DNA of 26,213 nt from Sulfurimonadaceae bacterium (GTDB lineage: Bacteria; Campylobacterota; Campylobacteria; Campylobacterales; Sulfurimonadaceae), in contig JBFESZ010000022.1 in assembly GCA_041548245.1 (NCBI GenBank), positions 1 through 26,213 of the forward strand, given 5' to 3'. The notes below the pieces were generated by a model. The model saw only the letters and a list, made by a program, of their open reading frames with translations. It did not search any database and had not been told where the DNA came from. This document shows positions 196 to 25,080 of the stretch, piece after piece. Within the stretch, counting starts at the first letter, position 1. Each line of letters opens with the position of its first letter. Both the position numbers and the translations under genes were made by a program.

Positions 196-672
196 ATGAA
201 TAATATTCTTGAAAATGAAATAAATTCCTTTCGAACCCGATTCATGTCACATATTCCAGATGATTCACCCGATATTTCTTTACCAATATTAAAAGCCCAT
301 CTCTTAGCTGAAGAATTATTATCTGATTATATACACTTAAAAGTAAAGCATCCCAAACATCTTCAGCTAGAAAAAAATCATTGGAGCTTTATAAACAAAC
401 TTGAGTTAGCCTCTTCGCTAGCAAATGATCAACTTCAGAATATGTGGATTTGGACAGCACTTAACAAATTAAATGCTTTACGTAATAGGCTTAGTCATAG
501 TTTAGAACCTAAAGATATAGAAAAGAAAATCAATGAATTCAAGGAAGCTGTCAATCCATATGCTCCAAATCGTTATAAAGAAAATGAAATTACGATTTAT
601 GGCTATGTGCTCTTTGTCGTTAGTGGACTATTCATTGCCATAAAATCAGAAGAAGGAAAAATCACAAAATAA
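196..672 (+). CDS. Hypothetical helical protein with HEPN/MtlR-like RNxxxH motif
   Basis: 158-aa ORF with AGGA RBS upstream; motifs LKAHLLAEELL, SFINKL and LNALRNRLSH; visibly AT-rich. Confidence 0.7.
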   Translation: MNNILENEINSFRTRFMSHIPDDSPDISLPILKAHLLAEELLSDYIHLKVKHPKHLQLEKNHWSFINKLELASSLANDQLQNMWIWTALNKLNALRNRLSHSLEPKDIEKKINEFKEAVNPYAPNRYKENEITIYGYVLFVVSGLFIAIKSEEGKITK

Positions 673-3172: not shown

Positions 3173-3197
3173 AGTGAAGAAAGATCTTCTCTTCACT
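3173..3197 (-). terminator. Stem-loop at the 3' end of the ankyrin gene
   Basis: AGTGAAGA (3173-3180) / TCTTCACT (3190-3197) perfect 8-bp inverted repeat, touching the stop codon; U-tract weak. Confidence 0.45.
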
Positions 3198-3826
3198 TAG
3201 TTTAAAACAAGACGCTGAAGTGTCTGAATCGTCTTTGTCTCTTCTGCTTCCTTGGCTTCTTGAAGCGGTGTCATGCCTTCAGAGTTTTTCGCATTGATAT
3301 CGGCCCCTTGTTCGACTAAAAACTCAGATGCCTTGCTGTTGCCGATATATGCTGCCACATGTAGTGGCGTTGAGAGATCTTTGCTTTGCGCATTGATCTG
3401 TGCACCATTTTCAAGTAACAGTCTAATTGTCTCGATATCACCGCCTTCTGCCGCACGGTGAAGCGGTGTAATACCGTCCTTGCCTTTTGCATTGACATCA
3501 GCATTAGCACGAAGCAAAAAGACTATGGACTTTCTATCCCCATGAAAAGCTGAGATATGAAGTGCACTACGGCCATTTTTCATTCTGGCATTGATATTAG
3601 CACCCTTTTCAATAAGATACTTCAGTATCTCCGAGTTTTCAGTATAGGCAGCGATGTGAAGAGCTGTCTGCTGATATTCGTAGTTTTTTGCATTGATATC
3701 CTCGCCATTATCAAGGAGCTCTTTAACCTTTTCCAGATTTCCTTTTTCAACACTATCATGCAAGTCTGTCGCAAAAACAGATAGAGGTAACAGTGTGAGC
3801 ACTATCAGTAAACCAAGTTTCATCAT
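3197..3826 (-). CDS. Exported ankyrin-repeat protein (about 5 full repeats plus a partial one)
   Basis: Repeated T(P/A)LHxAA...GAxINA units. Start moved to ATG 3826 (or 3823) behind an AGGAG RBS, giving a signal-peptide-like MMKLGLLIVLTLLPLSVFA. Confidence 0.9.
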   Translation of the reverse strand: MMKLGLLIVLTLLPLSVFATDLHDSVEKGNLEKVKELLDNGEDINAKNYEYQQTALHIAAYTENSEILKYLIEKGANINARMKNGRSALHISAFHGDRKSIVFLLRANADVNAKGKDGITPLHRAAEGGDIETIRLLLENGAQINAQSKDLSTPLHVAAYIGNSKASEFLVEQGADINAKNSEGMTPLQEAKEAEETKTIQTLQRLVLN

Positions 3827-3942
3827 CGTTCTCCTATAAGAATTTATACTCATAATCTTAATGAAGTTTTGTAAATAATTGACTAATAGTTTATGTGTTT
3901 AGAAATTATATTTTGTTGTATGGGAAAACGGGAAGAGGAGCT

Positions 3943-6454: not shown

Positions 6455-6484
6455 ATTATACATAATTGAGTCATTGAATGTCAA
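6455..6484 (-). promoter_or_regulatory. Sigma70-type promoter of grpE-dnaK
   Basis: Minus strand TTGACA (6484-6479) - 18 nt - TATAAT (6460-6455), ~30 nt upstream of the grpE start. Confidence 0.75.
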
Positions 6485-6900: not shown

Positions 6901-8235
6901 TTAAAAATCAAAAATGTCATCGAGGTCACTCTCCTCATCGTTCAAGCCATCGTCTTTCAGCATTGAAATAATAGTTTGCGTATTTGCTACAATCGTGTCA
7001 TTCATAAAGTCCGCTGAAGGTGCACCCTCTTCGAAGGTCATTTTGGCCCAGGTCTGTAAGTCAGAAACAAATGCCCCGCTTATATCGGATAGGTCTTTTT
7101 CAATCTCCATGAAACGCTGCATGTGTGAAAATATCTCACTGCTTAGGTTCAAAAGTGATTTACCTATGGGAAAGCTTTGCGTATAGATTCTCAGACGTTT
7201 ACCCAGTACATCAAGCAAGCCGGCAATCTGTTGGATATCATCCTCATTTAATCGGGAACTGCCCAGCATAAGCATTAACGAGCTCAGATCCCCTAAATAT
7301 TCATACATGTCCAATAGATCGTCATGGTCCATGTAGTTAAAGACCTGATACTCTTGTATATTTGTCTGAGCGATTTGAATATCCTGATCTTTGACATTAA
7401 TCATTGTCTCGGCAGCTTTCACCGTCTCAAAAGACGGCCTATCTTCCTCTGCAATAATACTGATTATTTTCTCAAGTCGAAAACTTATCTTTTCCCTGAT
7501 GGACTTGAATGTCTTGACCTCTTTGTTCTTTTGTATAATGAGCTTGACGATACTCTCATCAATCGCATCGAGCTTGTTGAGTGTAAAATAGATAGCATCA
7601 TTATCAGCTTCTACAATAATCCATGGTTTTTGGGAAGCTTTGACGACAGCATCCCCTAACGCATAGACTGCACGCACGACATCAGAGAGTCCATCGACTT
7701 TCGTTGATTCATCACCTAGAAGATAATATTCCCAAAACTCTGACAAGGCCTCATCATTTTCCACATAAAAAATCGTTTGTCGATGGAAGACCTCTTTCGT
7801 ATAAAGGTTGACGGATTTTTCGTTGCCAAGCTTTTCGATCTGATGACGTTTGGGCAAAAGTGAAAAATAGTTCTCTAAACGCGCATATAACAGTTCGGTG
7901 TCCAACGGCTTGGAGACATAATCTTCCGCTCCGCAGCGTAAAATCTCTTTTTGTCTTTTATCATCATCAACCGCCGATACTGCGATGATCATAACTTCTT
8001 TATCGTGTTCACGTATCTTTGTCGTTGCCTCAATACCATCCATCACTGGCATCATGATATCCATAAAGATCAGATCGTATTTTATTTCCTGTGACTTATT
8101 AAGTGCTTCCAGCCCGTTAGCACATTCATCAATCTCACACTCTATGATCTGACGACTTGCATTGTATTCTTGCACAAGAAGGGATAAGAGCATTCTGTTA
8201 TTGGCATTATCATCAACAATCAAAATCTTCATCAC
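6901..8235 (-). CDS. Response regulator: N-terminal REC domain plus unrecognised ~320-aa C-terminal region
   Basis: ILIVDD, DLIFMDIMMPVMDG, IIAVSA, YVSKP; ends in acidic DEESDLDDIFDF. Start at GTG 8235 or ATG 8232. Confidence 0.88.
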   Translation of the reverse strand: MMKILIVDDNANNRMLLSLLVQEYNASRQIIECEIDECANGLEALNKSQEIKYDLIFMDIMMPVMDGIEATTKIREHDKEVMIIAVSAVDDDKRQKEILRCGAEDYVSKPLDTELLYARLENYFSLLPKRHQIEKLGNEKSVNLYTKEVFHRQTIFYVENDEALSEFWEYYLLGDESTKVDGLSDVVRAVYALGDAVVKASQKPWIIVEADNDAIYFTLNKLDAIDESIVKLIIQKNKEVKTFKSIREKISFRLEKIISIIAEEDRPSFETVKAAETMINVKDQDIQIAQTNIQEYQVFNYMDHDDLLDMYEYLGDLSSLMLMLGSSRLNEDDIQQIAGLLDVLGKRLRIYTQSFPIGKSLLNLSSEIFSHMQRFMEIEKDLSDISGAFVSDLQTWAKMTFEEGAPSADFMNDTIVANTQTIISMLKDDGLNDEESDLDDIFDF

Positions 8236-8307: not shown

Positions 8308-9051
8308 TCAGCTGATCCTATTGAGCAGCTCTTTGCAGAAGGCTTTATAATCCTTCATCCCTTTGGTTCGCTTTTCCATAAGCACAATTGGTTCGCCGGA
8401 CTCAAACTGTTGTGCAAGTTTGATGTCGGTTCCAATAGGAGCAAAGACCTTTGACTTTCCAAAAGCCCCCTGCACTTTTTGCAGGGACTCTTTGTGCTCG
8501 TTGATGTGAGGGTTATACATCACCGGCAACATACCCACATGCTGAATCTCCGCATTCATCTGTGTGGACATCTGATAAACTGCACGTACCATCTGTCCAA
8601 CGGCAACAACGCCAAGGTGATGGGGAACAAAAGGAATTACAACGACATCAGCGACTTCAAGTGAGTTCTTTAGTAAGGCATCGAACGTTGGTGCGGTATC
8701 AATAATACAGTAATCAAAAAAATCGCCCACTTTCTCTTTTTTAAAACGGTTCTTTAATACCCCTCGCAAATCAGAGTATTCATAGACGTCGAACAGAGCA
8801 TGTGCCGGGGCCAAGGTAAGATTGTTTAATACAGTAGGGACAAAGTTCTCGCTCAAGGTCTTTCCAAAAAAGATAGAGTGTGAACCTCCATCCTCCATCG
8901 GTGCTGAACCGACACCGATGGAGGCATGCCCTTGCGTGTCGAAATCTATAAGAAGCACAGAGTGTGTTTTGGCAAGTTCTGTGGCGAGATTGACTGCCGT
9001 TGTCGTCTTAGCCGAGCCACCTTTTCGGTTAGATATGACAATAGTTTTCAT
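8308..9051 (-). CDS. ParA/MinD-family ATPase (orphan, chemosensory-cluster associated)
   Basis: Deviant Walker A SNRKGGSAKTT, LLIDFDTQG, IIDTAP, ADVVVIP. Confidence 0.9.
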   Translation of the reverse strand: MKTIVISNRKGGSAKTTTAVNLATELAKTHSVLLIDFDTQGHASIGVGSAPMEDGGSHSIFFGKTLSENFVPTVLNNLTLAPAHALFDVYEYSDLRGVLKNRFKKEKVGDFFDYCIIDTAPTFDALLKNSLEVADVVVIPFVPHHLGVVAVGQMVRAVYQMSTQMNAEIQHVGMLPVMYNPHINEHKESLQKVQGAFGKSKVFAPIGTDIKLAQQFESGEPIVLMEKRTKGMKDYKAFCKELLNRIS

Positions 9052-9110: not shown

Positions 9111-9377
9111 TTATAGATTACACTCACCTACATCAAATCCTTCTATGATTTTTTGATAGATTCTAGGCGTGGAAGCAAACTCAAACTTACAGCTATAAAG
9201 CTTTTTATACGCCAGAATCTGCTGAATTACAGAGAGGTGTACATCATCACAATCACTCAAATCAAAAACAAGCTCTTCGGGTGCAAGTGTATTCAGTTGA
9301 TCACGCAGTTGTAAGACTTCATCTTCATAGATGACCCCTGTCAAAGTTATATTATTCCCTTTAGATTCAATTGGCAT
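9111..9377 (-). CDS. STAS-like small protein
   Basis: 88 aa, ITLTG...LVFDLSDCDDVHLSVIQ; TAATG overlap with the upstream cheW. Confidence 0.7.
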   Translation of the reverse strand: MPIESKGNNITLTGVIYEDEVLQLRDQLNTLAPEELVFDLSDCDDVHLSVIQQILAYKKLYSCKFEFASTPRIYQKIIEGFDVGECNL

Positions 9378-10153
9378 TATGCACTCCTTTTCTCGAGTGA
9401 GATATCTTTGATGATAGTCACTAGTTTTTTATTATGTGACAAGATAGCTGCAACATTCATAAAATCACCCATGTGCTGTACATCCTGTACCTCATGTAAT
9501 TCAGTTTCTTCTACATGTACAATATCTTCTACAGCATCGATATTAAGCCCAATAAAACCACCCTTGTCATCCCCTATAATCAAACAGCGCTGTAGTCCAG
9601 CCGCAACTGTAGCCGAAAGATCAGAGACCTTAGACAAGCAATCAAGTGTGTTCATATAATGTTCATTCACACTAGTCTCTATCAACTCTTTTGCTTCATC
9701 AATAGAGACATTTCGTTTTTCCAAGACATCAACAGCAGAGATATGCAGGTTCTGATGATAATAACTAAGTTTTTTCATCAAAACAAGGACCTCTTCATTA
9801 TCGGGGTGGAAAGAGTCTATCCATTTTCCCAGTTCACAGACGTGAGGATCAGTCGTATCCGAAAAAGACTCTCCCGTCTCTACACTCTGCTTAAGAGTCT
9901 CTAACCACTCTTTATGCTGAGACTCCAGTATGGGAAACATCTCTTGCAACTGTTCTTCATAACTATTTTGTCCTATTGCTTTTCGAAAGCTGATCACCTT
10001 CAGAACACTCTCTTCATACTGAAACATGCCTTCGATATGCTCACCTTCATCAGGTATCTCGGTCAGTTCCTGTGCCGGCAAGATACGTTTTACACTTTCG
10101 ATATCAATACCATAATATTGACCTAGTACAGAAAAGATAACAAAGGACCTCAT
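9377..10153 (-). CDS. cheW: CheW-like adaptor with inserted CZB (chemoreceptor zinc-binding) domain
   Basis: CheW N-part (YGIDIESVKRIL...IEGM), CZB residues H80, C106 (CELGKW), H133, H137, then CheW C-part (IGLNIDAVEDIV). ATGA overlap with cheA. Confidence 0.85.
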   Translation of the reverse strand: MRSFVIFSVLGQYYGIDIESVKRILPAQELTEIPDEGEHIEGMFQYEESVLKVISFRKAIGQNSYEEQLQEMFPILESQHKEWLETLKQSVETGESFSDTTDPHVCELGKWIDSFHPDNEEVLVLMKKLSYYHQNLHISAVDVLEKRNVSIDEAKELIETSVNEHYMNTLDCLSKVSDLSATVAAGLQRCLIIGDDKGGFIGLNIDAVEDIVHVEETELHEVQDVQHMGDFMNVAAILSHNKKLVTIIKDISLEKRSA

Positions 10154-12879
10154 GAGACTTCCTCTAATGGAACCTGGAGTTGTGAAGAGATACCCAAAAG
10201 ACCTACAGGGTCTATCATCATAATAATCTGCCCATTTCCAAGAAGAGCTGTTCCGCTGAATATCGGATGTCCTTGCAGCATTCCCAGCAGAGGCTTTTGC
10301 ACAACATCAAGCTGTCCAAGAAGCTGATTGACAACAACAGCGAGCAGGTTACCCTTGATATTAAGAACGACGATACTCAACTCTTTGTTCTTGATCTCTT
10401 CCAAGTCAAGCATTGAGTTGATGAACAGCAGTGGGATCACCTCACCTCTAAGATAGATAAACGGTTCATTATGTAAGGCCTCTATCTCACTCTTCTCTAT
10501 TTTGACAGTCTCTTGTACAGAATCCATTGGGAAACCATAATGCACACCGCTCATCTCTACATGAAGAAGAGATGTTACCGCCAATGATACCGGTATAGCC
10601 AGAGTGATTGTTGTACCTACATTTGCCTCAGTGCGAATCGATATACTTCCGCCAAAACTCTCAATTGATTTTTTAACGACATCCATACCTACACCACGCC
10701 CACTAAATTCGGTAATGGATTCAGCTGTGGACAGACCTGCCAATAAGACAAGTTCTGCTCTGCCATTATCATCAAGAGCATCGATTTGGTCCATACTCAT
10801 CAACCCTTTTTCAATGACTTTTTGAATAACACGTTCTACATTGATACCTGCACCATCATCCTTAATCTCGACGATGATCTTGTCAGACTGGGCATAGGCT
10901 TTTAGGTTGACATTCCCTTCAGGGTTTTTACCTTTGGCAATACGTACGTCAGGAAGTTCAATACCGTGATCAAGCGAGTTTCTCATGATATGGATCATCG
11001 GATCGGCAAGCATCTCGATAATATTCTTGTCCAGCTTGGTGTCACCGCCCTCCATGTGTAAATTGACCTTCTTGTCCAGCTTCTTTGTAATATCTCTGAC
11101 CAGTTTAGGATAACGGTCAAACACATAGGAGATAGGCAGCATACGCATCGACATGATAAGGTCTTGCAGTTGTTCTGAAAGACGATTGATAAAAGTGTAT
11201 TTCTCCATAATGGCACGTTTGACATCTTCAGGAGTCATCTCATGCACACCATCAGCCAGATATGGCAATGAGTTTTTAGCAACCAGTAACTCACCGATGA
11301 TATTCATCAAGGAATCAACAGACTCTTGTTCGATTTTGACTGTTTTTCCAATGACATTGCGTTTTGACTCCGTCTTAGCAGCCGGTTCAACTTGAGTACG
11401 TGGTTCTTCCTGGGCAACTTCAATTTTCGGTGCTTCTTCTGTTACTACCGGATTCTCTGTTACTGGAGTCATTTGATGATCAACGCTAGGTTCTTCTTCA
11501 AACACAGCTTCTTGAATAATCTCCTCTGGAACAGGTTCTTCCAGACTCACTTCAGGGATTTCATCACTGACAAGAGCCGATGCGAAGGCCATCAATTCAT
11601 CTTTGTTAGAGACACCTTCCATACTCTCACCAAGTGACTGTGCTGTTCTTTCTAATATCATCTTGACACGTTCAAATACAGCTTCATCATCAGAAGCTTC
11701 CAACTGCATCAGTTGTTGAGAAACTATGCTTCTCGCGCTTTCACGCGTAGCTTCATCTATGACCGGTTTTATCATCTGAGCAGGTTCCGCTTTTGATTCT
11801 GCATTAGTACTCACCTCGCCGGAAAAGACCCTACCACTATGTAGCCCGTCAAAAAAGTTGCTTAGAGGCTGAAGGTCATCTGTGCACTCCATGATATCAA
11901 CAAAACGTTTGAGTTGAGCATACTGAATCGTATCCTCTCCAATAAGCCCCAGTGACTCATCAATCAATGCTTTAAGCTTCTCTTTGGATGTCAGCTCTTT
12001 CTTCGCATTGGCACTAAGCTCTTTCATTACATCAAGCTCATGAACTTCACCTTTACTCACGCCCAAGAGAGTGACAATATCAAGCGGTAAAAAGATCAAT
12101 TCATCCATAAAGTTATACAAGGCCTCTTCAATCTCGTCATACCCTGCCTCAACAAAAGCAATAATCTGTAGACTCAGGCCGAGTCCCTCGTCCTCATCAT
12201 CAATACCGCTGATTACCGACTTGGCCGCTTCCTCCTCCATACAAGAGTAGACGTACTTGACCTTATCACCCAGAAGAGAGAGCGTATAGGCAGGGTCATT
12301 ACCAAAGACCATACATGATGCATCAACATCGAAGACAATCGCATAAAAACGTACATCATTAAAGTTTTCTTCTGTGATTGCATCCATTTGAATCGGCAAA
12401 GATATTCCAGAACCAGCTAAGAAGTTAATAGGTAAATTGACAATCTTGGACTTATCCTGAAGCAAAGTCATAGGCATATTCCAAGCCTCTTTCTCACTGC
12501 TTTTACCCATTCTTTCACATAGCTCTTCGATAAGCGTATTGACAACCTCTTCATCTGCTTCTACAATATCTTCTGTATCTTCAGCGGCTTCTATAAGATT
12601 CATAACCTCATCAAAAGCATTGTATAAAGACTCAATGACCTCTTCAGTCGGAGCGACATCTCCATCACGAACCATATCTAGCAAATCTTCTGCATGATGC
12701 GTTATATCCTTAACAGAGTTGAAACCGACAATTCCAGAGCCCCCTTTAAGTGTATGTGCTGCTCTAAAGACCGCATTGACAAGTTCACTATCGCCTGAAC
12801 CAAGATTTTCAATGTTTTGGTCAATAAAAGCAAGGTTTTCTCTGGCTTCTTGTAAAAATGATTCTAATAATGGATTCAT
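10150..12879 (-). CDS. cheA: Chemotaxis histidine kinase CheA (909 aa, long central insertion)
   Basis: P1 FRAAHTLKG, P3 VDSLMNIIGEL, P4 HIMRNSLDHG / DDGAGI / GRGVGMDVV, C-terminal P5 CheW-like domain. Confidence 0.97.
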   Translation of the reverse strand: MNPLLESFLQEARENLAFIDQNIENLGSGDSELVNAVFRAAHTLKGGSGIVGFNSVKDITHHAEDLLDMVRDGDVAPTEEVIESLYNAFDEVMNLIEAAEDTEDIVEADEEVVNTLIEELCERMGKSSEKEAWNMPMTLLQDKSKIVNLPINFLAGSGISLPIQMDAITEENFNDVRFYAIVFDVDASCMVFGNDPAYTLSLLGDKVKYVYSCMEEEAAKSVISGIDDEDEGLGLSLQIIAFVEAGYDEIEEALYNFMDELIFLPLDIVTLLGVSKGEVHELDVMKELSANAKKELTSKEKLKALIDESLGLIGEDTIQYAQLKRFVDIMECTDDLQPLSNFFDGLHSGRVFSGEVSTNAESKAEPAQMIKPVIDEATRESARSIVSQQLMQLEASDDEAVFERVKMILERTAQSLGESMEGVSNKDELMAFASALVSDEIPEVSLEEPVPEEIIQEAVFEEEPSVDHQMTPVTENPVVTEEAPKIEVAQEEPRTQVEPAAKTESKRNVIGKTVKIEQESVDSLMNIIGELLVAKNSLPYLADGVHEMTPEDVKRAIMEKYTFINRLSEQLQDLIMSMRMLPISYVFDRYPKLVRDITKKLDKKVNLHMEGGDTKLDKNIIEMLADPMIHIMRNSLDHGIELPDVRIAKGKNPEGNVNLKAYAQSDKIIVEIKDDGAGINVERVIQKVIEKGLMSMDQIDALDDNGRAELVLLAGLSTAESITEFSGRGVGMDVVKKSIESFGGSISIRTEANVGTTITLAIPVSLAVTSLLHVEMSGVHYGFPMDSVQETVKIEKSEIEALHNEPFIYLRGEVIPLLFINSMLDLEEIKNKELSIVVLNIKGNLLAVVVNQLLGQLDVVQKPLLGMLQGHPIFSGTALLGNGQIIMMIDPVGLLGISSQLQVPLEEVS

Positions 12880-12888
12880 AGCAGCTCC

Positions 12889-13251
12889 TTATGGGATTAA
12901 AATTCTCAAATAGTTCTTCAATACTTCAGGCTTTATCGGTTTTGTCTCAAAAAGATTGGCACCTACTTTAAAAGCTTCTGTACGGTCCTCATCATGAGCC
13001 TGAGTTGTAATCATAATAATAGGAGTCATTGCATAAACCGGTTCTTTACGTATCTCTTGTACAAATGAGTACCCATCCATAATAGGCATATTGACATCCA
13101 CGAGATACAAAGCGATGTCTGAGTCGAGACTCCTTTCGAGAGCTTCCATCCCGTTTTCAGCTTCCACGACTTCAAAACCCATCTCTTTAAGTAAAGAACC
13201 GTGATACATCCGTACCGTTTTTGAATCATCCACTACCATTACTTTCATCAT
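12889..13251 (-). CDS. cheY: CheY-like single-domain response regulator
   Basis: VMVVDDS, LVDVNMPIMDG, IIMITT, TKP. Confidence 0.9.
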   Translation of the reverse strand: MMKVMVVDDSKTVRMYHGSLLKEMGFEVVEAENGMEALERSLDSDIALYLVDVNMPIMDGYSFVQEIRKEPVYAMTPIIMITTQAHDEDRTEAFKVGANLFETKPIKPEVLKNYLRILIP

Positions 13252-13257
13252 TCTCTC

Positions 13258-13647
13258 CTAAAAAAACTCTATTTCATTATCTTCTGATGGATTTTTAAGA
13301 TGGCCGCTAAAAGCCTCTTTTTTCGCTTTTGCCTCATCCAACACTGAATTCATCTTTGCGCGCAGTTTGATCACACTGTCATCCGCTATCTTTTCATCTT
13401 CTTTAAACGTATGAGAGAACATCTGTAAGTTTTTTTGTACCAACTCAATTGCTTCGATCGTTGCCGAAAGTTGCTGTGAGACAATATCTTGATACTGCAG
13501 AGCTTCCGCCGCATCATCATCTAACTCGATATTTTGATTTTCCATAAACGTGGAAAGTTTCATCTGTGCTTCCTTAGATATCTTAATCGTATCTTTTTCC
13601 ACTTCCTTGATATGTTCTAACAGTTCATGCAGTGAATCAAATATCAT
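13258..13647 (-). CDS. Small coiled-coil protein with CheZ-like DxxxQ motif
   Basis: ALQYQDIVSQQL resembles the CheZ active-site QDxxxQ; lies between two cheY genes; ends EDNEIEFF. Confidence 0.65.
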   Translation of the reverse strand: MIFDSLHELLEHIKEVEKDTIKISKEAQMKLSTFMENQNIELDDDAAEALQYQDIVSQQLSATIEAIELVQKNLQMFSHTFKEDEKIADDSVIKLRAKMNSVLDEAKAKKEAFSGHLKNPSEDNEIEFF

Positions 13648-13682
13648 GTTTTCCTACTTTCGAATAAATTATTTCAGTTCTA

Positions 13683-14063
13683 TTATGCTGGTAAACGCAA
13701 TACCCGTGTAATCGCTGATTTTAACTGTGTCGGATTAAAAGGTTTTACAATCCATCCTGTAAGACCCAATGCTTTCCCCTGCTGTTTCAACTCATCCTTT
13801 GTCTCTGTTGTCAACATCAACACCGGTGTACGTTTTGTTGCCGGAAGTTCACGTAAAGCTTTTAAAAGTTCCAGACCATTCATAACTGGCATATTAAGGT
13901 CGGTAATGATCAGATCAGGCACAACACCCGCCTTCACATCAGCTAAACACAGTTGTGCCTCAAGATATTGTTTTACTTCTATTGGCATTGATGAAACCGT
14001 CATACGTGTTGAAGCTAAAGCTGTTTCAGAGTCATCGATAAACATAACGATTGGATTCGCCAT
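13683..14063 (-). CDS. cheY: CheY-like single-domain response regulator
   Basis: MFIDDS, IITDLNMPVMNG, LMLTTE, GWIVKPF. Confidence 0.92.
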   Translation of the reverse strand: MANPIVMFIDDSETALASTRMTVSSMPIEVKQYLEAQLCLADVKAGVVPDLIITDLNMPVMNGLELLKALRELPATKRTPVLMLTTETKDELKQQGKALGLTGWIVKPFNPTQLKSAITRVLRLPA

Positions 14064-14182: not shown

Positions 14183-15004
14183 TCATTTCTGATAAATCAT
14201 CGTGCTTCCGAACTTTCTCGCCTTATAAACCGAGACAATACGAGACATGTACTCTGCGTGCCCTAAAAAAACGTACCCGCTCGGCTTTAACATGTCATAA
14301 AAGTTCATTGCCACCTCTTTTTTACTCGCATCATCAAAGTAGATCAACATGTTTCTAGAAAAGATAATATCAAATTTTCCCAACTCACGTATTTGGGCCC
14401 TATCAAATATATTGACAACTTTAAAGTCTACCGCGCCGATAAGATCATCGATAAGAGTGTATGAAAAACTTCCCTTTTTAAAGTACTTTGCCAATTGACC
14501 AGGAGGAATAGCATGGACTGAACGTTCTGAAAATTTTCCGTCTTGTGCCTTTTTGATAACATTTGAATCGATATCGATCCCTACAATCTCAATATCTCTT
14601 CGTTCAATCAGATTAGCCTCTTCAAGAAGATAAAGGACCATCGAGTAGGGTTCTTCTCCCGTAGAACAGGGAGCAGAAAGGATTCGAAGAGGTTCATCAC
14701 TCGGACGTATCTTGTCAAGCTGCGGTAAGACATCGTTGACCATCACCTCAAACTGATCATGCTCTCTGAAAAAATAGGTCTCGTTAACCGTGACGGCATT
14801 CATAAGGTTTTGAAATTCACTTCCATCTTTGTCTTCGAAACGAAGTCTAAAGAAGTACTTTCTAAAGTTTGATACCTCTAGCTCTTCAATACGATTGACG
14901 ACATATTTATTCAGCTTGTCATAATGCTTGCTGAGTTCAAGAAAGATCCCGCTTTTACGATAAATAAATTCAGCTAGCTTTTCAAAGTTTCCTTCATTAA
15001 ACAT
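14183..15004 (-). CDS. cheR: Chemotaxis methyltransferase CheR
   Basis: TVNETYFFRE, SAPCSTGEEPYS, GIDID, FDIIFSRNMLIYFD, LGHAE. Confidence 0.97.
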   Translation of the reverse strand: MFNEGNFEKLAEFIYRKSGIFLELSKHYDKLNKYVVNRIEELEVSNFRKYFFRLRFEDKDGSEFQNLMNAVTVNETYFFREHDQFEVMVNDVLPQLDKIRPSDEPLRILSAPCSTGEEPYSMVLYLLEEANLIERRDIEIVGIDIDSNVIKKAQDGKFSERSVHAIPPGQLAKYFKKGSFSYTLIDDLIGAVDFKVVNIFDRAQIRELGKFDIIFSRNMLIYFDDASKKEVAMNFYDMLKPSGYVFLGHAEYMSRIVSVYKARKFGSTMIYQK

Positions 15005-15005
15005 G

Positions 15006-15629
15006 CTAGGCCTCTATTGATTTAATAGCAGCATCAATGGCAAAAGCCGCATAACTTTCATCCTTAAAACGCTCCTTGACTCGTCTAAGAAGTTCAACGT
15101 CTTCAGGCTGCCCTATTTCAGCCATATAGTCTACTGCCGTCATCGCAACATTTATATTTTGCTCATTCTCCAGTAATTCAATCAGCATATCACGTGACTC
15201 AGCAAAGTTCACATCTCCCAAGACATTGATAGCGAAAATACGAAGGTCATAATCATCTCCGATTAGAAACTTTACAATATAATACTTTATCTCCTGACCA
15301 TAATCCTGTAAGATAGAGATACCCAAATTACGGATATAGGCATTTGAAAGCTTTAGCAACTCCATAACCTGTTCAATTGGTGCTTCTTTGGGATCAAGCT
15401 GTGACAAGATCGCTGCTATACGTGCTGCCGTATCCTTATGCGTAGTTCGTTCGATAAGCTTGTCTACTAAGAAGTGTGCACCGTCTTTGAACTTGACCAT
15501 TTCTTCAAGTGCATACGACTTTTCATCAAAAGCTTCCGTACTTTCATAAAAACTGATCGCCTCTTCTAAGCTGCTAAAGGCAGGCAGTTCTTTGACTTCA
15601 CTCTTCGTATCTCTTTTAATCAATGCCAT
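15006..15629 (-). CDS. HEAT-repeat protein between cheB and cheR
   Basis: Helical repeats NAYIRNLGISIL, DYDLRIFAINVLG, NINVAMTAVDYMAEIG; GGAGAG RBS. Confidence 0.85.
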   Translation of the reverse strand: MALIKRDTKSEVKELPAFSSLEEAISFYESTEAFDEKSYALEEMVKFKDGAHFLVDKLIERTTHKDTAARIAAILSQLDPKEAPIEQVMELLKLSNAYIRNLGISILQDYGQEIKYYIVKFLIGDDYDLRIFAINVLGDVNFAESRDMLIELLENEQNINVAMTAVDYMAEIGQPEDVELLRRVKERFKDESYAAFAIDAAIKSIEA

Positions 15630-15652
15630 TGGCTCTCCTATTCAAGCTTCAT

Positions 15653-16720
15653 CTATTTCAGATTAACTATTTTCTTTCTTATCTCTTCAAAGTCCAATAC
15701 CTGAGAGGCCCCGCCTCTCTCATAGGCCTCTTTCGGCATTCCGTAGACAGTGCATGACTCTTCAGACTCGGCAAGAGTATAACCGCCACCTTTTTTAATC
15801 TTCACCATGCCATCAGCACCATCATCTCCAATACCGGTCAAGAGCACACCGACTATCTTGTTTGCCGGAAAAACTTTTAAAGCCGAATCAAACATCTCAT
15901 CCACCGCAGGCTGAAAGAAACGACCATTTTTGTCCTGATCGTTATAAGTCACTATCTTGCCTGAGGTTTTTTTGCGAAAATGCATATGTACCCCACCTTT
16001 TGCAAGATAAATATGTCCAGGTAAAACTTCATCATTGTTCGATGATTCATGTACCGGAGCGATGGCAACGCGGGCAAGGCGTTCGGCAAAAGCTCGTGTA
16101 AACTGTTCAGGCATATGCTGAACAATACAGATAGGATGAGGATAGCCCAAAGGTATCGAGGCAACGATTCTTTCAACAAGTCCCGGCCCGCCTGTAGAGA
16201 CACCTATTAACACAATTTTATCAATATCTTTAGAACTCTTTTGCGGTATATTCTGCTCTTCGTATTGACGTCTTGAACGTCGTTCGCGAGTAATTTCAGG
16301 CACCTTCTCTGGAGTTTTTAACCGTCGACGCGGAATACGGCTGAGCGATTTTATTTTTTGAATAATTTCCTTGCCGCTTTCTTCAACGCCGACATTCATT
16401 GTTCCCGGTTTTAAAATAAAATCTATTGCACCGAGTTCCATCGCTTCTACCGTGATGGATGCATTTTCAGAAGTTAAAGAACTCACCATCAGAATAGCTG
16501 TCGGGTTCTTTTTCATGATCTCTTTAACTGCGGAAAGACCATCAAGTACAGGCATATTGATATCCATGGTTATAACATCATAGTTCTTGGCGAGAGCCTT
16601 ATCAATAGCCTCTTGACCATTCTTTGCAATATCGATTTCAAAATCAAGATCTTCTATCAGTGACCTTAGTTGTTTACGAACCAATGCTGAATCATCGACA
16701 ATTAGCACCTTTTTACTCAA
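15653..16720 (-). CDS. cheB: Chemotaxis methylesterase CheB (REC + esterase)
   Basis: VLIVDDS, TMDINMP, catalytic GVSTGGP, VQHMP, LTGIGDDGA, YGMP. TTG start overlaps the upstream stop. Confidence 0.97.
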   Translation of the reverse strand: MSKKVLIVDDSALVRKQLRSLIEDLDFEIDIAKNGQEAIDKALAKNYDVITMDINMPVLDGLSAVKEIMKKNPTAILMVSSLTSENASITVEAMELGAIDFILKPGTMNVGVEESGKEIIQKIKSLSRIPRRRLKTPEKVPEITRERRSRRQYEEQNIPQKSSKDIDKIVLIGVSTGGPGLVERIVASIPLGYPHPICIVQHMPEQFTRAFAERLARVAIAPVHESSNNDEVLPGHIYLAKGGVHMHFRKKTSGKIVTYNDQDKNGRFFQPAVDEMFDSALKVFPANKIVGVLLTGIGDDGADGMVKIKKGGGYTLAESEESCTVYGMPKEAYERGGASQVLDFEEIRKKIVNLK

Positions 16721-18126
16721 GCAATTTCCTTGTTATCGTTTTTTGCCAATGCCAATGAGGAGAAAAGGACATTGGTATCAAACATCAGTACCAAGCGTTT
16801 TCCTTTATTGAGTTGCAAAATATTGGAAAAAAGACGTCCTTTCTCCTCTTCAGGTTTTATCTCGCTGTCTTTGATACCTCTAACATCATTCACTTTGTCC
16901 ACAACAAAACCGAGACGGTTGTCATTGACTTGCGTGATGATGATCTGTTGTTCAATATTCTCTTTTTCTTTGAGTCGTAAGATAGTATACAAAGAAGCAA
17001 TACTGATAACTTGACCACGGATATTGATAACACCTTTAATATGCTCAATGCTGTCTGCGACAGGCGTAATATCTGTCATATCAATGATTTCACTGACATC
17101 ATCGATATCAAAAGCATACTCTTCATCTGCCATTTGAAATATGACAACTTCCCTATGTGACTCTTCTGCTGCTTGCTTTTGGTTTTCATCTTTTTCTTGG
17201 TCTGATATCAGATGGCTTTGTTCGTTGACCAGTGTTCTTATTACATCCGTGTTGACAATACTTACCAACTCATTATTGAGATGTAATACACCATTTATCT
17301 TCTTGTCTTTGAAATTTTCAGGTAATCCTTCGATACGACTGATCTCAACATCTTGGATATCAACGATGTCATCGACAACAAGGCCAATATGACGTCCCAG
17401 ATGTTGTGAAACAATAATACGGTTCTTATCACTCTTCTTGACTTTAAAATCATAATAAATTCGTAAATCCGCTACAACCAATAGGTCTTGACGTAGTGAC
17501 ATCATCCCTAATATCTCTTTATTGCTCTCGGCGATTGCGGTAAAACTCTCTGGTAACGAGATAATCTCTCGGATCGAGTCTACTTCTAAGGCATACTTTT
17601 CCTCTCCCATGACAAAGAAAAGAAAACGTTGCAGATGGGATTGTTTCTCTTCACCTGAGCCACTCGAGCTGATTTCACGTACATCTTTTGAAACATATGA
17701 TGGCAGTCTTACATCTTCTATCAGACGTTCTACACTAATAATCTGAATGATATCATCTTGGTGCTTCAACAAGGCGATAATCACATCATCCGTATCCTCT
17801 ACATACTCTACAGCAGAGCTATCAACTTCAACCGAATTAATCACTTCAGAAACTAAAAGAGAAAAACGGTGTTTTTGAGTATTGATCGTCACCTGCCTTG
17901 CCTTAAATGCAGCAATATCTACAAGTGCTTGTTTCGGATCAAGCAGATAAGAAAAATCAAGAGCTGTGAGAATAGCACCTTCAATAGAACAGATACCGCG
18001 AATAGATTCAGGGGTCATTGCCATCGGAGTGATATCTTGAACACGTAAAATCTGTTCAACCTCATCCGTATTAATCCCATAAAAACATCCCTGCTCTTTT
18101 ATGATTAAAACTTCATTAATTTCCAT
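16717..18126 (-). CDS. cheW: Multi-domain CheW (three CheW domains)
   Basis: Three units: FYGINTDEVEQIL..IRGIC, YALEVDSIREII..ILGMMSLR, YAFDIDDVSEII..IKGVINIRG. Confidence 0.9.
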   Translation of the reverse strand: MEINEVLIIKEQGCFYGINTDEVEQILRVQDITPMAMTPESIRGICSIEGAILTALDFSYLLDPKQALVDIAAFKARQVTINTQKHRFSLLVSEVINSVEVDSSAVEYVEDTDDVIIALLKHQDDIIQIISVERLIEDVRLPSYVSKDVREISSSGSGEEKQSHLQRFLFFVMGEEKYALEVDSIREIISLPESFTAIAESNKEILGMMSLRQDLLVVADLRIYYDFKVKKSDKNRIIVSQHLGRHIGLVVDDIVDIQDVEISRIEGLPENFKDKKINGVLHLNNELVSIVNTDVIRTLVNEQSHLISDQEKDENQKQAAEESHREVVIFQMADEEYAFDIDDVSEIIDMTDITPVADSIEHIKGVINIRGQVISIASLYTILRLKEKENIEQQIIITQVNDNRLGFVVDKVNDVRGIKDSEIKPEEEKGRLFSNILQLNKGKRLVLMFDTNVLFSSLALAKNDNKEIA

Positions 18127-18183: not shown

Positions 18184-20064
18184 TCAGCCCTGTTGAAGTT
18201 CATCTGCCATCACAGCAAGTTCTTCGACACCTTCTCCGATATGAGATATGGTATCGATAATCAATTCACTCGCTTTGCGTGACTCTAAAGCATTTTTAGC
18301 CGATAGCTCAACTGCTTTTTGAATTTCGGTGATACCAATGAGAACAGAGTCCAGTCCCTCTAAGTTCTGATCATTGATCGCTTTAAGACCTGTATATCTG
18401 TCAAGAAGTTCGACAAGCATGTTAATGATTTTATCCATTTCCAACACCAATGAGTCAAGACGTGTTTTTTCACCGCCCTGACCATCAAGCAGACTGCTCC
18501 AGTCATCTTGGACCATGCTGATCTCTGCATTCATACCCTCAATCGTATCGTTAATCTTCTCAGTATTCGATTCGGAGTCTTTTGCCAATGATCTGATATC
18601 AGCCGATACGACGGCGAACCCTTTTCCGAACTCACCGGCACGGGCTGCTTCAATCGAACCACTGATAGCGAGCATATTCAACTGTATAATAGAGTTGGAG
18701 ATGTTACCTACCGTCTTATCGACATTTTTAGTCTCTTTAACAATCACTGCAAGCTCATCACTTGCACCCTTACCTTCTGAGATAGAATTAAGGACTTCCC
18801 CGTTGATTGAAATCATCGAGTTTTTCACTTCGGCAAAAGAAACTTTGAGCAAGTCAAAGTTTCGTCTGGCAATCTCTATCAACTTATCGATATCTTTGGC
18901 TGCGGCTATACCGCCTTCAATATTATCTTTATTCGAAAGTGCGGACTGGTTTGTCGCTTGAGAAGATGATTCGATCTCATTAAGGGCCTGTGTAACCTGC
19001 TCAAGTCCTGACTGAATCTCTTCCATATTGCCGCCGATTGTATCCGCTGTCGCTGCGATATCCTCAGCAGATTTGGCCGTATCCGTAGAAAATTTCAATT
19101 CTTCTGCCAGTGCACTTAAGTCTTTAATATCTCTTTCTGTCTGTGCAAGTGCATTCGACTGTAATTCAATTCCGTTAAGTGTCTGCTCAACAGACAATGC
19201 TGCACGGCTTGAAGCTTCTGCGATCTCAGCGGAACCCTCATTGACGGTCGCCGCATAATTCCCGAGCTTTTGTGTAAATACAGAAACTTGCCGAGCCGCT
19301 TCAACTGAGTAAACTGCAATCTTAGTCAGCTCTTCCATCTTCAGACTAAGTTCAGATGACGTGTCACCTGTTTTGCTAATCGTATTGGTCGTATTGATAA
19401 TGTTCTTGATAATAGTATCAATACTACCTTGTATCTTATTGACCAACTCAGAGATGAACTCCGCATTTTTCTCACTCTCTGCTGCCAATGCTCTTGTTTC
19501 ATCTGCTACAACTGCGAATCCTTTACCATGTTCTTTCGCACGACTTGCTTCAATAGCAGCATTAAGCGCAAGCAAGTTCGTCTGATCTGCAATCTTAGCA
19601 ATAAAACCGACCGCTTCACCAATATTTTGTGAAGAGACTTTCAACTCCTCACTCTTTTTAGAAGAAGACTCTGCAACACTTACTGCACCTGTCATACGTT
19701 CAACTGAACCGTTGATCATATTAACGGCATTAATGATGGTATCACCTGTGGCTAGAGTCGAGTTGATAACGGTATCAATATTACCTGTCATTCTATTGAT
19801 GTTATTATTAATACCCTTAACATTCTTCAGCGCCTGTTCACTCGCACCACTATTCTCTTCTGCCGCTGTTGCTATCTGCTCCATTGAAGACTTTAGCTGT
19901 TCGATAGCTGACACTGACTCTTGAGCATTGTCTAAAATATTTGAAGCAATCCCTGAGATACTTTCTGAGATCTGTTGTTGCTTGGCCAAAGTTCGTTGGC
20001 GTCTCTTGTCTCCTCCACTTGCTGGGGCAACACTACTTGATGAACTGCTTTTTACTAATGCCAT
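18184..20064 (-). CDS. Cytoplasmic MCP with two signalling domains (DosM-like)
   Basis: Two hairpin-tip motifs (QTNLLALNAAIEASRAKEHGKGFAVVADETRALA and QLNMLAISGSIEAARAGEFGKGFAVVSADIRSLA); no TM or sensor domain seen; GAGGAG RBS. Confidence 0.92.
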   Translation of the reverse strand: MALVKSSSSSSVAPASGGDKRRQRTLAKQQQISESISGIASNILDNAQESVSAIEQLKSSMEQIATAAEENSGASEQALKNVKGINNNINRMTGNIDTVINSTLATGDTIINAVNMINGSVERMTGAVSVAESSSKKSEELKVSSQNIGEAVGFIAKIADQTNLLALNAAIEASRAKEHGKGFAVVADETRALAAESEKNAEFISELVNKIQGSIDTIIKNIINTTNTISKTGDTSSELSLKMEELTKIAVYSVEAARQVSVFTQKLGNYAATVNEGSAEIAEASSRAALSVEQTLNGIELQSNALAQTERDIKDLSALAEELKFSTDTAKSAEDIAATADTIGGNMEEIQSGLEQVTQALNEIESSSQATNQSALSNKDNIEGGIAAAKDIDKLIEIARRNFDLLKVSFAEVKNSMISINGEVLNSISEGKGASDELAVIVKETKNVDKTVGNISNSIIQLNMLAISGSIEAARAGEFGKGFAVVSADIRSLAKDSESNTEKINDTIEGMNAEISMVQDDWSSLLDGQGGEKTRLDSLVLEMDKIINMLVELLDRYTGLKAINDQNLEGLDSVLIGITEIQKAVELSAKNALESRKASELIIDTISHIGEGVEELAVMADELQQG

Positions 20065-20089: not shown

Positions 20090-20518
20090 TTAGTCTAAAG
20101 TAGCATAAAGCTCTTCAGCTTTCTTAATATCTTCACGCGATGGTTTAACACGAATAGATACGTATTTAGTATTGCCATTTTTATCGACAGAACGAAGCAC
20201 TGTGGCATAAACCCAATAATATCCCCCGCCTTTGCGAGCATTCTTTACATACCCCGTCCAGAACCCTTTAGATTGAACATCATCCCACAATGATTTAAAC
20301 GCAGCACGCGGCATTTCAGGATGACGTACGCAGTTATGTGGCTGTCCATACAATTCAGTCTCGTCCATATTTGCGATCTGCATAAATGAGTCTGATGCGT
20401 AAGTGATGATCCCCTTCTCATCTGTTTCAGACAAGAGGTATAAAGAGCTGTATAAAACCTCACCATCATCTAGAAAGGTCAACCCCTCAGTATCCAAAAC
20501 ATTTTTCTTTTTTGCCAT
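20090..20518 (-). CDS. Stand-alone PAS protein of Aer/CetB type (probably FAD-binding)
   Basis: SETDEKGIITYAS..F...ELYGQPHNCVRHPEMP..AF..LW......W.G.VKN..K.G.YYWV; AGGAG RBS. Confidence 0.9.
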   Translation of the reverse strand: MAKKKNVLDTEGLTFLDDGEVLYSSLYLLSETDEKGIITYASDSFMQIANMDETELYGQPHNCVRHPEMPRAAFKSLWDDVQSKGFWTGYVKNARKGGGYYWVYATVLRSVDKNGNTKYVSIRVKPSREDIKKAEELYATLD

Positions 20519-21217: not shown

Positions 21218-21312
21218 GCCAAAATTTATTAGATACAGTTGAAATCCTTTTATGCCTAATGCCATGATTTTAAAAACAAAGAGGACAAAATCTATCTTTT
21301 ATCTATTTTATG

Positions 21313-21318
21313 TATAAT
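21313..21318 (+). promoter_or_regulatory. Putative -10 box of the Rrf2-flhA operon
   Basis: TATAAT 36 nt upstream of ATG 21355. Confidence 0.5.
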
Positions 21319-21354
21319 ACACCCAATATATATAGTAAAGAAGGACTGACCTCT

Positions 21355-21759
21355 ATGCTGATGACACGAGCAAGCGAATATGCATTATTATCTCTAGTGA
21401 CCCTAGCTACGGCTACCGATCCTATGGATACCGAAACATTAGCACATGAGCTTGGGATTTCTAAAAGCTTTCTTGCCAAGATCCTACAAAGTTTGGCACG
21501 CCAGGGAATCTTAAAATCTTACAAGGGCGTAAAAGGCGGTTTTGTCCTCATACAGCCTAAAGAAGAAATCTCTATCTTGAGCGTCATGCAAGCGGCAGAA
21601 GGAAAAGGACCAACCGTATTTGACTGTTCTCCGGGGATTGGAAACTGTCCTGCTGAAAAAGAGGAAAGTTGTCATATCTGGCCCTTTATCAGTAACCTTC
21701 AAGGGCGTATAGACGACTTTCTTGCGAGTATCACACTTGCTGATATTCTTAAAAAATAG
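21355..21759 (+). CDS. Rrf2-family transcriptional regulator with three Cys (Cx6Cx7C)
   Basis: MLMTRASEYAL, HTH ISKSFLAKILQSL, SYKGVKGGF, CSPGIGNCPAEKEESC. Start moved to ATG 21355 behind AAGGA. Confidence 0.92.
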   Translation: MLMTRASEYALLSLVTLATATDPMDTETLAHELGISKSFLAKILQSLARQGILKSYKGVKGGFVLIQPKEEISILSVMQAAEGKGPTVFDCSPGIGNCPAEKEESCHIWPFISNLQGRIDDFLASITLADILKK

Positions 21760-21772
21760 GACCTTCTAGACA

Positions 21773-23968: not shown

Positions 23969-23991
23969 AAGCGACAACACAAAGGTAACAC

Positions 23992-25080
23992 ATGTCAAAA
24001 CTCAACAATACAATCTATCATCTTTCACATATCGACTTAGATGGATACAGCTGTCAACTCGTCATGAAAGAAGCTTATAATAAAATCATCTTCTTTAATG
24101 CCAATTATGGTGCTGAAGTGGGTGAAAGACTGGGTGAGATCCTCGAGGAAATCAAAACAAAAAAAGAAAACGCCTCGATCTTGATCACTGACTTAAACCT
24201 TACCGTAGATGAATCCAAATGGCTAAGCAAAGAGATAGAAAATCTGCGCGATTATGAAAAAATCAACGTCCAACTTCAACTCTTAGATCACCATGGAAGT
24301 GGACAGGACTCTGCCAATAAATTTGAGTGGTACTTTCTTGATACTTCCCGTTCAGCAACGCAAATAACCTATGACTACGTCCTAGAGCACTATAGACTCA
24401 ATGATGAAACAAAAGCGTGGCTAAGCCCTTATGTCGATGTTGTCGATGCTGTTGACTTATGGCATCAGGAAAAACATGAAGCCTTCGAGTACGGGAAAGT
24501 CTGCATGCGTCTTATTTCAGAAACACGTGAACTCAACCGTGTGATGTTCGCTCAAGAAGACAGAGCTTACAAACATGCCCTCCTCTTCGAAGCGGCACAG
24601 ATACTCCCTTTGGATAATTCAAATATCCTGTTAGATGATACGATCCACACGCTCAAGAAGAACTACTTTAGAAAAGGGCATGATGATACCCTTGATAATC
24701 TTGGTACCGCTTATATCGTAGAACTATTAGGGCAACAAAAAGTAGATAAAACGATCTATTACAAAGGGTATAAAGGTTTTCTTTCCTATGCACTTGGAAA
24801 CACTTCCATTATCGGAAATGCCTTTTTAACGACTTTTGATGAGTATGACTTCATTGTGGATGTAGGGCCAAGAGGAACAATGAGTCTGCGGGCTAATAAT
24901 AAAGTAGATGTCTCTTTGATCGCCAAAGAATGGGCTGGGGGCGGTGGGCATCCCAATGCCTCAGGTGGACGTATTAATGGTTTCAAGGAGCAGTTCAGAT
25001 ACGACAAGGTAAAGAAACAGATCCAAAATATTATCGATGAGAATGAGTCCAGAGCAGGTACGCTTAAACCAAAGTCTTGA
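23992..25080 (+). CDS. DHH-family phosphoesterase (NrnB/nanoRNase-like)
   Basis: SHIDLDG, ITDL, LLDHH, C-terminal GGGGHPNASG (DHHA1). Confidence 0.9.
   Translation: MSKLNNTIYHLSHIDLDGYSCQLVMKEAYNKIIFFNANYGAEVGERLGEILEEIKTKKENASILITDLNLTVDESKWLSKEIENLRDYEKINVQLQLLDHHGSGQDSANKFEWYFLDTSRSATQITYDYVLEHYRLNDETKAWLSPYVDVVDAVDLWHQEKHEAFEYGKVCMRLISETRELNRVMFAQEDRAYKHALLFEAAQILPLDNSNILLDDTIHTLKKNYFRKGHDDTLDNLGTAYIVELLGQQKVDKTIYYKGYKGFLSYALGNTSIIGNAFLTTFDEYDFIVDVGPRGTMSLRANNKVDVSLIAKEWAGGGGHPNASGGRINGFKEQFRYDKVKKQIQNIIDENESRAGTLKPKS

Follow-up and report, generated by a model that had tools for sequence, protein, structure and literature searches.

Where does the signal enter a chemosensory array whose only receptor has no sensor domain? 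This question is raised by a gene cluster in the window, i.e. the whole stretch of 26,213 nucleotides of Sulfurimonadaceae DNA analysed here, in which the gene for a CheW adaptor (cheW::CZB) appears to be interrupted by a CZB domain. The earlier note on this DNA had proposed that the resulting protein senses at the level of the adaptor, modulating CheA without passing through a receptor. Should the bundle gate CheA, F9 arrays would offer a direct example of a signal entering at the baseplate, which bears on the question of their input. The relevant features, all on the reverse strand, are listed below with their sources.

9377–10153 (−): cheW::CZB gene, 258 amino acids, in the single-CheW (W1) slot of the F9 cluster (ORF, Pfam, AlphaFold2, VIA)
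9968–10153 (−): N-terminal CheW half, residues 1–62, ending after helix alpha1 (phmmer, AlphaFold2, E. coli CheW alignment)
9596–9967 (−): predicted CZB four-helix bundle insert, residues ~63–186 (Pfam, AlphaFold2, VIA against 3t9o_B)
9377–9595 (−): C-terminal CheW half, residues 187–258 (profile and E. coli CheW alignment, VIA)
9914–9916 (−): H80, predicted zinc ligand (DgcZ alignment, relatives)
9836–9838 (−): C106, predicted zinc ligand or redox thiol (DgcZ alignment, relatives)
9755–9757 (−): H133, predicted zinc ligand (DgcZ alignment, relatives)
9743–9745 (−): H137, predicted zinc ligand (DgcZ alignment, relatives)
10085–10087 (−): R23, at the position of E. coli CheW Glu38, charge-swapped (alignment)
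10013–10015 (−): E47, at the position of E. coli CheW Arg62, charge-swapped (alignment)
10150–12879 (−): F9 CheA, 909 amino acids, 4-nt overlap with the cheW::CZB start (ORF, Pfam)
9111–9377 (−): STAS-like protein, 88 amino acids, its start overlapping the cheW::CZB stop by 1 nt (STAS_2 at 21.2 bits, below the cut-off)
8308–9051 (−): ParA-family ATPase (Pfam, NCBIfam, locus comparison)
12889–14063 (−): CheY, a 129-aa protein and CheY (ORFs, Pfam)
14183–16720 (−): CheR, HEAT-repeat protein and CheB (ORFs, Pfam)
16717–18126 (−): triple CheW (CheW3) without insert, F9 marker (Pfam)
18184–20064 (−): DosM-type double-tip soluble receptor, F9 marker (Pfam)
20090–20518 (−): stand-alone PAS protein, a rival sensory input (Pfam, locus comparison)
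6901–8235 (−): receiver with a ~320-aa C-terminal region without family match, the usual last gene of the cluster (Pfam, loci)

The split CheW fold and its conserved core

Pfam found both CheW and CZB above their cut-offs in this one protein: CheW as two stretches (60.2 bits, cut-off 23.5) and CZB at residues 80–143 (36.7 bits, cut-off 29.4, E 5.6e-9). NCBIfam had no model above cut-off for it. When solved structures were searched with phmmer, residues 3–62 and 192–248 matched the CheW of T. tengcongensis and residues 79–139 the CZB domain of DgcZ. In the AlphaFold2 model (pLDDT 91.5, 52-row alignment) the CheW strands run from a first strand at 2–9 to residue 55 and resume from 189, with helices at 65–93, 107–114, 120–147, 151–178 and 180–186 sitting between them. 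VIA aligned residues 1–258 of the model with T. tengcongensis CheW (2qdl_B; Z 17.6, rmsd 2.5, 138 of 146 residues) and residues 65–182 of this predicted structure with the DgcZ CZB domain (3t9o_B; Z 13.9, rmsd 2.4, 116 of 120 residues); Foldseek likewise returned CheW over the whole range and 3t9o_B over the bundle. A Z of ~13 is also scored by other four-helix ligand-binding domains, and the CZB call therefore rests on sequence and fold together. Sequence homology and the model confirm the expected architecture: a discontinuous two-subdomain CheW fold (residues 1–62 and 187–258) carrying a complete CZB four-helix bundle (~63–186, where the earlier note had placed the helical insert at 62–185).

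The GC content of the insert is 0.40, compared to 0.40 and 0.38 in the flanking CheW halves; the composition does not change at the insert, and nothing in it suggests that the insertion is recent. That the gene is chimeric or mis-assembled, or its helical region due to chance, can be given practically no probability. The genome bin does have an estimated contamination of 5.67%, and nothing else we noted speaks for such an origin. Against it stand 71 full-length relatives (window protein included) of 253–259 residues with the same layout, 88 CheW::CZB representatives at E ≤ 1e-30 in a profile search (counted in the best 150 overall), and a CheW plus CZB family set common to 17 of 30 ESM Atlas matches. 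The artefact reading is refuted by these independent genomes. The nearest named relatives are Sulfurimonadaceae bins at no more than 80% identity, and the named relatives come mostly from mud and other environmental bins.

The N-terminal half aligns without gaps to residues 18–72 of E. coli CheW, with an offset of 15. In E. coli CheW a Glu38–Arg62 salt bridge has been described that aligns the receptor and kinase sites (PMC3828127). This feature of F7-class CheW is reversed in charge here, with R23 and E47 at the corresponding positions, where a salt bridge of opposite polarity would be expected from the sequence. The swap is shared by 69 of 71 near relatives and by 43 of the 45 locus copies. 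Among first-slot copies, all 19 without an insert and 46 of 48 with one have R23/E47, while the inserted units of triple CheWs keep E/R in 128 of 131 cases, so that the swap belongs to the adaptor lineage and not to the insert. It also provides evolutionary support for the Glu38–Arg62 bridge proposed in PMC3828127.

The receptor contacts of E. coli CheW given in PMC13098124 (E38, R62, V88, G99, V105 and V108) correspond to R23, E47, L191, G202, V208 and I211, all of which are invariant or at least 90% conserved. By homology of these contact positions, CheW::CZB probably binds the CheA P5 domain and receptor tips. A complex prediction with the P5 domain of the cognate CheA gave a score of 0.00 (mark 0.32), which speaks neither for nor against such binding. 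The insert takes the place of the loop that runs from the equivalent of E. coli F75, a CheW ring contact, to those of T86–V88, which are receptor contacts. CheW Gly57 is conserved (G42 in 52 of 52 and 39 of 39 sequences). Gly63 is replaced by E48, mostly D or E among the relatives and glycine in only 4 of 52 and 5 of 39; as the conservation of Gly63 was defined on the F1 and F7 CheW classes (PMC3828127), E48 marks a divergent CheW rather than a different fold. In the Sulfurimonadaceae triple CheW (16717–18126 (−)), the Glu38/Arg62 pair is missing from domain 1 in 33 of 33 sequences but intact in domains 2 and 3 of all 33.

The F9 cluster and the spread of the nested module

The F9 class is defined by DosM and a triple CheW, and the order [DosMW3B.RY.YAW1] is listed in the S6 table of PMC9321776 for S. 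gotlandica GD1 and Sulfuricurvum. The window shows this same order, with CheA, CheB, CheR and CheY all present, a DosM with two signalling domains (two MCPsignal stretches) and a concatenated triple CheW. Its 14 genes run PAS, DosM, triple CheW, CheB, HEAT, CheR, CheY, 129-aa protein, CheY, CheA, cheW::CZB, STAS-like, ParA, receiver. On gene content and order, this Sulfurimonadaceae cluster is of the F9 class, and CheW::CZB fills its single-CheW (W1) slot. As had been observed, the only MCP of the cluster is without a sensor domain: no Pfam domain other than the two MCPsignal stretches exceeded its cut-off, and a simple scan of this DosM showed no hydrophobic segment. The same is reported for 98% of DosM proteins, which have no sensor domains (PMC9321776).

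Orthologs were compared in 46 loci (L001–L045 and L048); L046, L047 and L049–L051 are more distant copies in other contexts, and the partial or weak L052–L069 were left out. Where the flanking DNA was available, W1 is directly preceded by cheA (42 of 42 loci) and followed by STAS-ParA (44 of 44). Tandem W1 copies occur in 4 of the 46. A stand-alone PAS gene directly precedes dosM in all 28 loci with at least 150 nt of upstream sequence, and its product is 78–84% identical over full-length matches, against a median of 36% for W1 in the distant group. The PAS gene is thus a more constant candidate input than the CZB bundle, and a possible split-receptor partner of DosM. Several paralogs of the PAS protein (20090–20518 (−)) are encoded elsewhere in the genome.

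The suspicion that CZB-CheW fusions were already catalogued proved right: CheW-CZB is a published architecture that accounts for 1.4% of 10,140 CZB proteins and is commonest in Clostridia (Perkins et al. 2021, PMC8262984), and it is listed as known, with sensing through fused CheW domains proposed, by Muok et al. (2023, PMC10653840). Like that subgroup, the window protein has CheW and CZB in one chain and no conserved Arg after the Cys; it differs in coming from a Campylobacterota clade with swapped R23/E47. The passages on CheW-CZB in PMC8262984 state no nesting inside the fold, no F9 link and no experiment. In the open-access literature searched, we found no paper stating the nested topology, its F9 link or the charge swap, and no experiment on any CheW-CZB. 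CheW::CZB is therefore a member of the catalogued type; what is new is the same insert site in stand-alone and triple CheWs, and a bundle that is optional.

The insert site was compared between 203 stand-alone and 121 long-protein CheW units, using the plain CheW domain profile as reference. It is the same throughout (profile position ~60–68, median net length 118 amino acids). Among the 121 inserted units in long proteins, 118 occupy the middle position of a triple CheW and 3 the third position; the sources include Desulfobacter latus, Desulfamplus, KSB1, the FCB group and Bryobacteraceae. Sixty inserted triples were flagged among the best 80 of 566 metagenome loci, and 44 of them have at least 700 nt of upstream sequence. 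In 38 of these 44 a DosM-like gene lies at most 400 nt before the inserted triple, and in the remaining 6 DosM is the previous gene. Although both the stand-alone and the triple sets are shaped by the queries used, DosM beside the inserted triples together with the F9 W1 indicates that the nested CZB has a recurrent link to sensor-less DosM systems. A plasmid search with the triple CheW::CZB gave no full-length inserted match among 30 listed of 419 records, and in a phylum-wide sample of 300 other genomes the W1 profile had matches in 3.

The whole-module tree separates the inserted units into three groups. In a CheW-only tree the inserted middle domains of triples group with plain middle domains (SH-aLRT 99); the alternative of one clade uniting all inserted CheW units, evaluated on 123 columns and a sample of 73 out of 208 rows, survives the AU test (p-AU 0.2). 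Five proteins (P0105, P0202, P0151, P0206 and P0308) show variants of the arrangement. Some are triples that carry the insert in domains 2 and 3 together, or in domain 3 without domain 2; one CheW::CZB of 421 aa has an additional region at its C-terminus, and a 1044-aa protein is a fusion with CheB domains. At L159:12838–13632 and L160:12353–13147 there is a second F9-like cluster (cheA, dosM-like, cheW::CZB, cheB, cheR), in which the inserted CheW is the sole CheW seen within the 20-kb region.

The known systems closest to this arrangement each share part of it. V. cholerae cluster I of the F9 class (DosM VC1403, triple CheW VC1402; Mo et al. 2022, PMC9321776) has DosM and the triple CheW in common with the window. 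In its S6 table W1 is a ‘single CheW domain’ and CZB is noted only on two DosM proteins, whereas the W1 of the window carries the bundle. As plain W1 orthologs exist, those of S. gotlandica and Sulfuricurvum may truly be plain. The same table lists ‘W4’ proteins for Paludibaculum and Thermosulfuriphilus; these may be split triples, since the inserted triple P0318 reads as four Pfam CheW stretches. The CZB domains of E. coli DgcZ (3T9O) and H. pylori TlpD share with the predicted bundle the four helices, the 3His/1Cys set, the C-x-L-G-x-W motif and the Trp at Cys+5, but sit at one terminus of their proteins rather than being tethered at both ends inside a beta-barrel protein. In CheWS (CheW-CheRlike) of Treponema denticola and in CheV, a coupling protein likewise has an extra input domain with proposed CheA input (PMC10653840), although these domains are appended and the predicted zinc-binding bundle is nested.

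The putative zinc site and the optional bundle

H80, C106, H133 and H137 are present in the translation at the positions given in the earlier note, as is the DPHVCELGKW stretch. All four align to the CZB ligands of DgcZ and so make up the 3His/1Cys set, with a spacing of 26/27/4 compared to 25/28/4 in TlpD, where the ligands are H315, C340, H368 and H372 (10.64898/2026.01.16.699579). The CZB alpha3 motif Cys-x-(F/L)-Gly-x-Trp is also found (C106, L108, G109, W111). From this homology, zinc binding by the four residues is probable.

Among the near relatives, the L/G/W of the motif is kept in 71 of 71 and the Cys in 65 of 71. All four ligands are found in 53 of 71 near relatives (incomplete in 18), 106 of 113 single-domain representatives and 43 of 47 locus copies. 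Across 39 paired loci C106, L108, G109 and W111 are invariant, and H80, H133 and H137 are each at least 90% conserved. The mean modal conservation across the insert is only 0.57–0.61, and the ligand and motif columns stand out above it. Where W1 is duplicated in tandem, the four ligands are complete in both copies (4 of 4 loci). This conservation and the intact duplicates point to selection on a zinc site where the bundle is kept.

Decay of the ligands is nevertheless seen. Among 48 inserted first-slot copies, 14 no longer have all four. Of 127 inserted units in triple CheWs, 27 have the complete set and 63 have no ligand left, which shows that the bundle can persist without zinc.

To establish how often the bundle itself is present, we searched 251 genomes of the family. 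DosM was found in 87 and the W1 profile matched in 87, with 86 in common; the one DosM genome without a profile match has a plain ortholog (L179), so that the adaptor is present in all 87 DosM-bearing genomes. The inserted form is present in 68 of them (G219 has it in another cluster layout); in the other 19 the cheA-W1-STAS slot holds only a plain protein of 142–152 amino acids. The two plain orthologs tested each gave one unbroken Pfam CheW stretch; the AlphaFold2 model of an insert-less ortholog reached a pLDDT of 52.5 from an alignment of only 16 rows, too low to be informative. In many genomes of one genus, a second W1 paralog, inserted or plain, follows the STAS gene (L161, L170–L178, L183–L192), usually with R/Q instead of R/E.

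The history of the insert was followed on a CheA tree of 67 rows, made up of the window, 5 close loci, all 19 plain genomes and 42 of the remaining 67 inserted genomes. On this tree the insert state changes at least 7 times, 5 of which are forced by starred branches. A single plain-only clade is rejected (p-AU 5e-6). With the group of the window as outgroup, the plain forms nest among the inserted ones. The pattern reads most simply as repeated loss of the bundle, with recombination as a possible alternative. We think the best reading is that the adaptor is the core of the system and the sensor an accessory, retained or duplicated in some lineages and decayed or lost in others. Orthologs of the same gene slot that are insert-less or ligand-less give ready-made natural controls within the Sulfurimonadaceae.

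Possible roles of the bundle

The proposal of adaptor-level sensing is thus a fair reading in part. What does not stand is the bundle as the obligatory input of the sensor-less MCP, since 19 of 87 genomes lack it and 14 of 48 inserted copies do not have its full set of ligands. We put at roughly 0.5 the probability that CheW::CZB is the second adaptor (W1) of the F9 system with an optional CZB plug-in for zinc or thiol redox that biases CheA. The plug-in reading includes the use of the same bundle in the same CheW loop in two settings, a stand-alone adaptor in Campylobacterota and the middle domain of triple CheWs in other phyla. More tentative is the further claim that such a plug-in in the F9 baseplate adaptor gates CheA through strain on the adaptor, without going through receptors or methylation-based adaptation.

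The steps would be as follows. The two halves close into one CheW fold, with the bundle replacing the alpha1–beta6 loop (E. coli ~74–85), as sequence homology and the model show. CheW::CZB would then join the CheA-P5/CheW baseplate of a cytoplasmic array braced by DosM, which in the F9 class has two layers. By analogy with DgcZ and TlpD, zinc would be held by H80, C106, H133 and H137 and released when free zinc falls or the Cys is modified, oxidation of the Cys being what frees the metal from CZB domains; in the TlpD CZB domain, a helix shift upon zinc loss is reported (10.64898/2026.01.16.699579). Speculatively, a similar shift could pull on both tethers, which adjoin the equivalents of F75 and T86–V88, and thereby change the alignment of receptor and kinase sites held by R23–E47, so that CheA might be biased without a receptor sensor domain.

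The nature of the signal can only be guessed at. In TlpD the Arg next to the Cys has been linked to an HOCl pocket (10.64898/2026.01.16.699579). Only 2 of 52 aligned relatives have this Arg, and the D314–R341 salt bridge of TlpD is absent from CheW::CZB, which has Q79 and E107 instead. HOCl was set aside as an unlikely natural signal on account of the missing Arg and the mostly mud and environmental origin of the named relatives. From what is generally known of these sulfur oxidisers, our guess would be zinc availability or sulfur chemistry.

A bundle that is a mere passenger or structural element, tolerated or spacer-like and perhaps zinc-binding, would exert no control over the kinase, and the input would come from the PAS protein or other soluble receptors. 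Repeated bundle loss and ligand decay fit this account, as does a PAS gene found in every one of the 28 loci and better conserved than W1. There is a precedent for a split receptor in CetA/CetB (PMC2628428), and other receptors were seen by cryo-ET in V. cholerae F9 arrays (PMC7534058). The genome also encodes two MCPs with a C-terminal CZB domain (G000:C15:10723–10911 and G000:C110:1965–2153; detected by the Pfam search and missed by a clade-specific CZB profile), which could carry a zinc signal by the ordinary route and count against the plug-in reading. Ligand and motif columns that stand out above the mean conservation of the insert speak against a passenger, however, as do tandem duplicates that both keep the four ligands, and we regard this explanation, the main rival, as less likely than the plug-in. 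If it were correct, CheW::CZB would simply be another example of a catalogued class, with the PAS-DosM pair as the better lead.

It is a good deal more doubtful that zinc or redox state sets array entry, capping or the recruitment of STAS and ParA, i.e. a ParP-like placement of arrays rather than moment-to-moment kinase activity. The fixed cheA-W1-STAS-parA order with overlapping start and stop codons is consistent with such a role, as are the swapped charge pair and the lost Gly63, both signs of a specialised adaptor. F9 arrays are seen only in starvation or when oxygen is low (PMC9321776), and ParP of Vibrio, a divergent CheW-like protein (AIF domain) whose gene lies close to that of a ParA-type ATPase within a che operon, links arrays to that ATPase (PMC5706961). 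CheW::CZB has neither the N-terminal ParC-interaction domain of ParP nor its Pro-rich linker, the CheW fold beginning at residue 2. The gene order also differs: where parC lies directly upstream of parP, no parA directly precedes W1 and it is found two genes downstream. STAS and ParA remain where the bundle is gone, so the bundle is not what they need. An identification of CheW::CZB as ParP was ranked low on the missing domain, linker and gene-order features. The optional plug-in remains our preferred reading.

Several other features of the window and genome were noted. A second CheA and further CheW-domain proteins are encoded elsewhere in the genome. A promoter scan of the window gave 52 sites, compared to 38 ± 6 in shuffled sequences, with nothing specific to the cheW::CZB gene. 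The receiver protein at 6901–8235 (−) accompanies most copies of the cluster and is a possible output protein. The 129-aa protein between the two cheY genes (13258–13647 (−)) had no family match above cut-off in Pfam or NCBIfam; its Gln-Asp-x-x-x-Gln stretch presumably resembles the CheZ active-site motif. In the low-GC first kilobase (0.328), a 158-aa ORF at 196–672 (+) has no Pfam or NCBIfam match, and contains an R-N-x-x-x-H motif that we take to be of the HEPN kind. A perfect sigma-70 consensus promoter lies immediately upstream of grpE-dnaK (6455–6484 (−)), and an ankyrin-repeat protein follows dnaK (3197–3853 (−)). Positions 21310–25080 (+) hold an Rrf2 regulator, a gene that we assume from its sequence to be flhA and a DHH protein in one run, followed at 25191–26213 (+) by a SagB-type dehydrogenase that is truncated by the end of the window.
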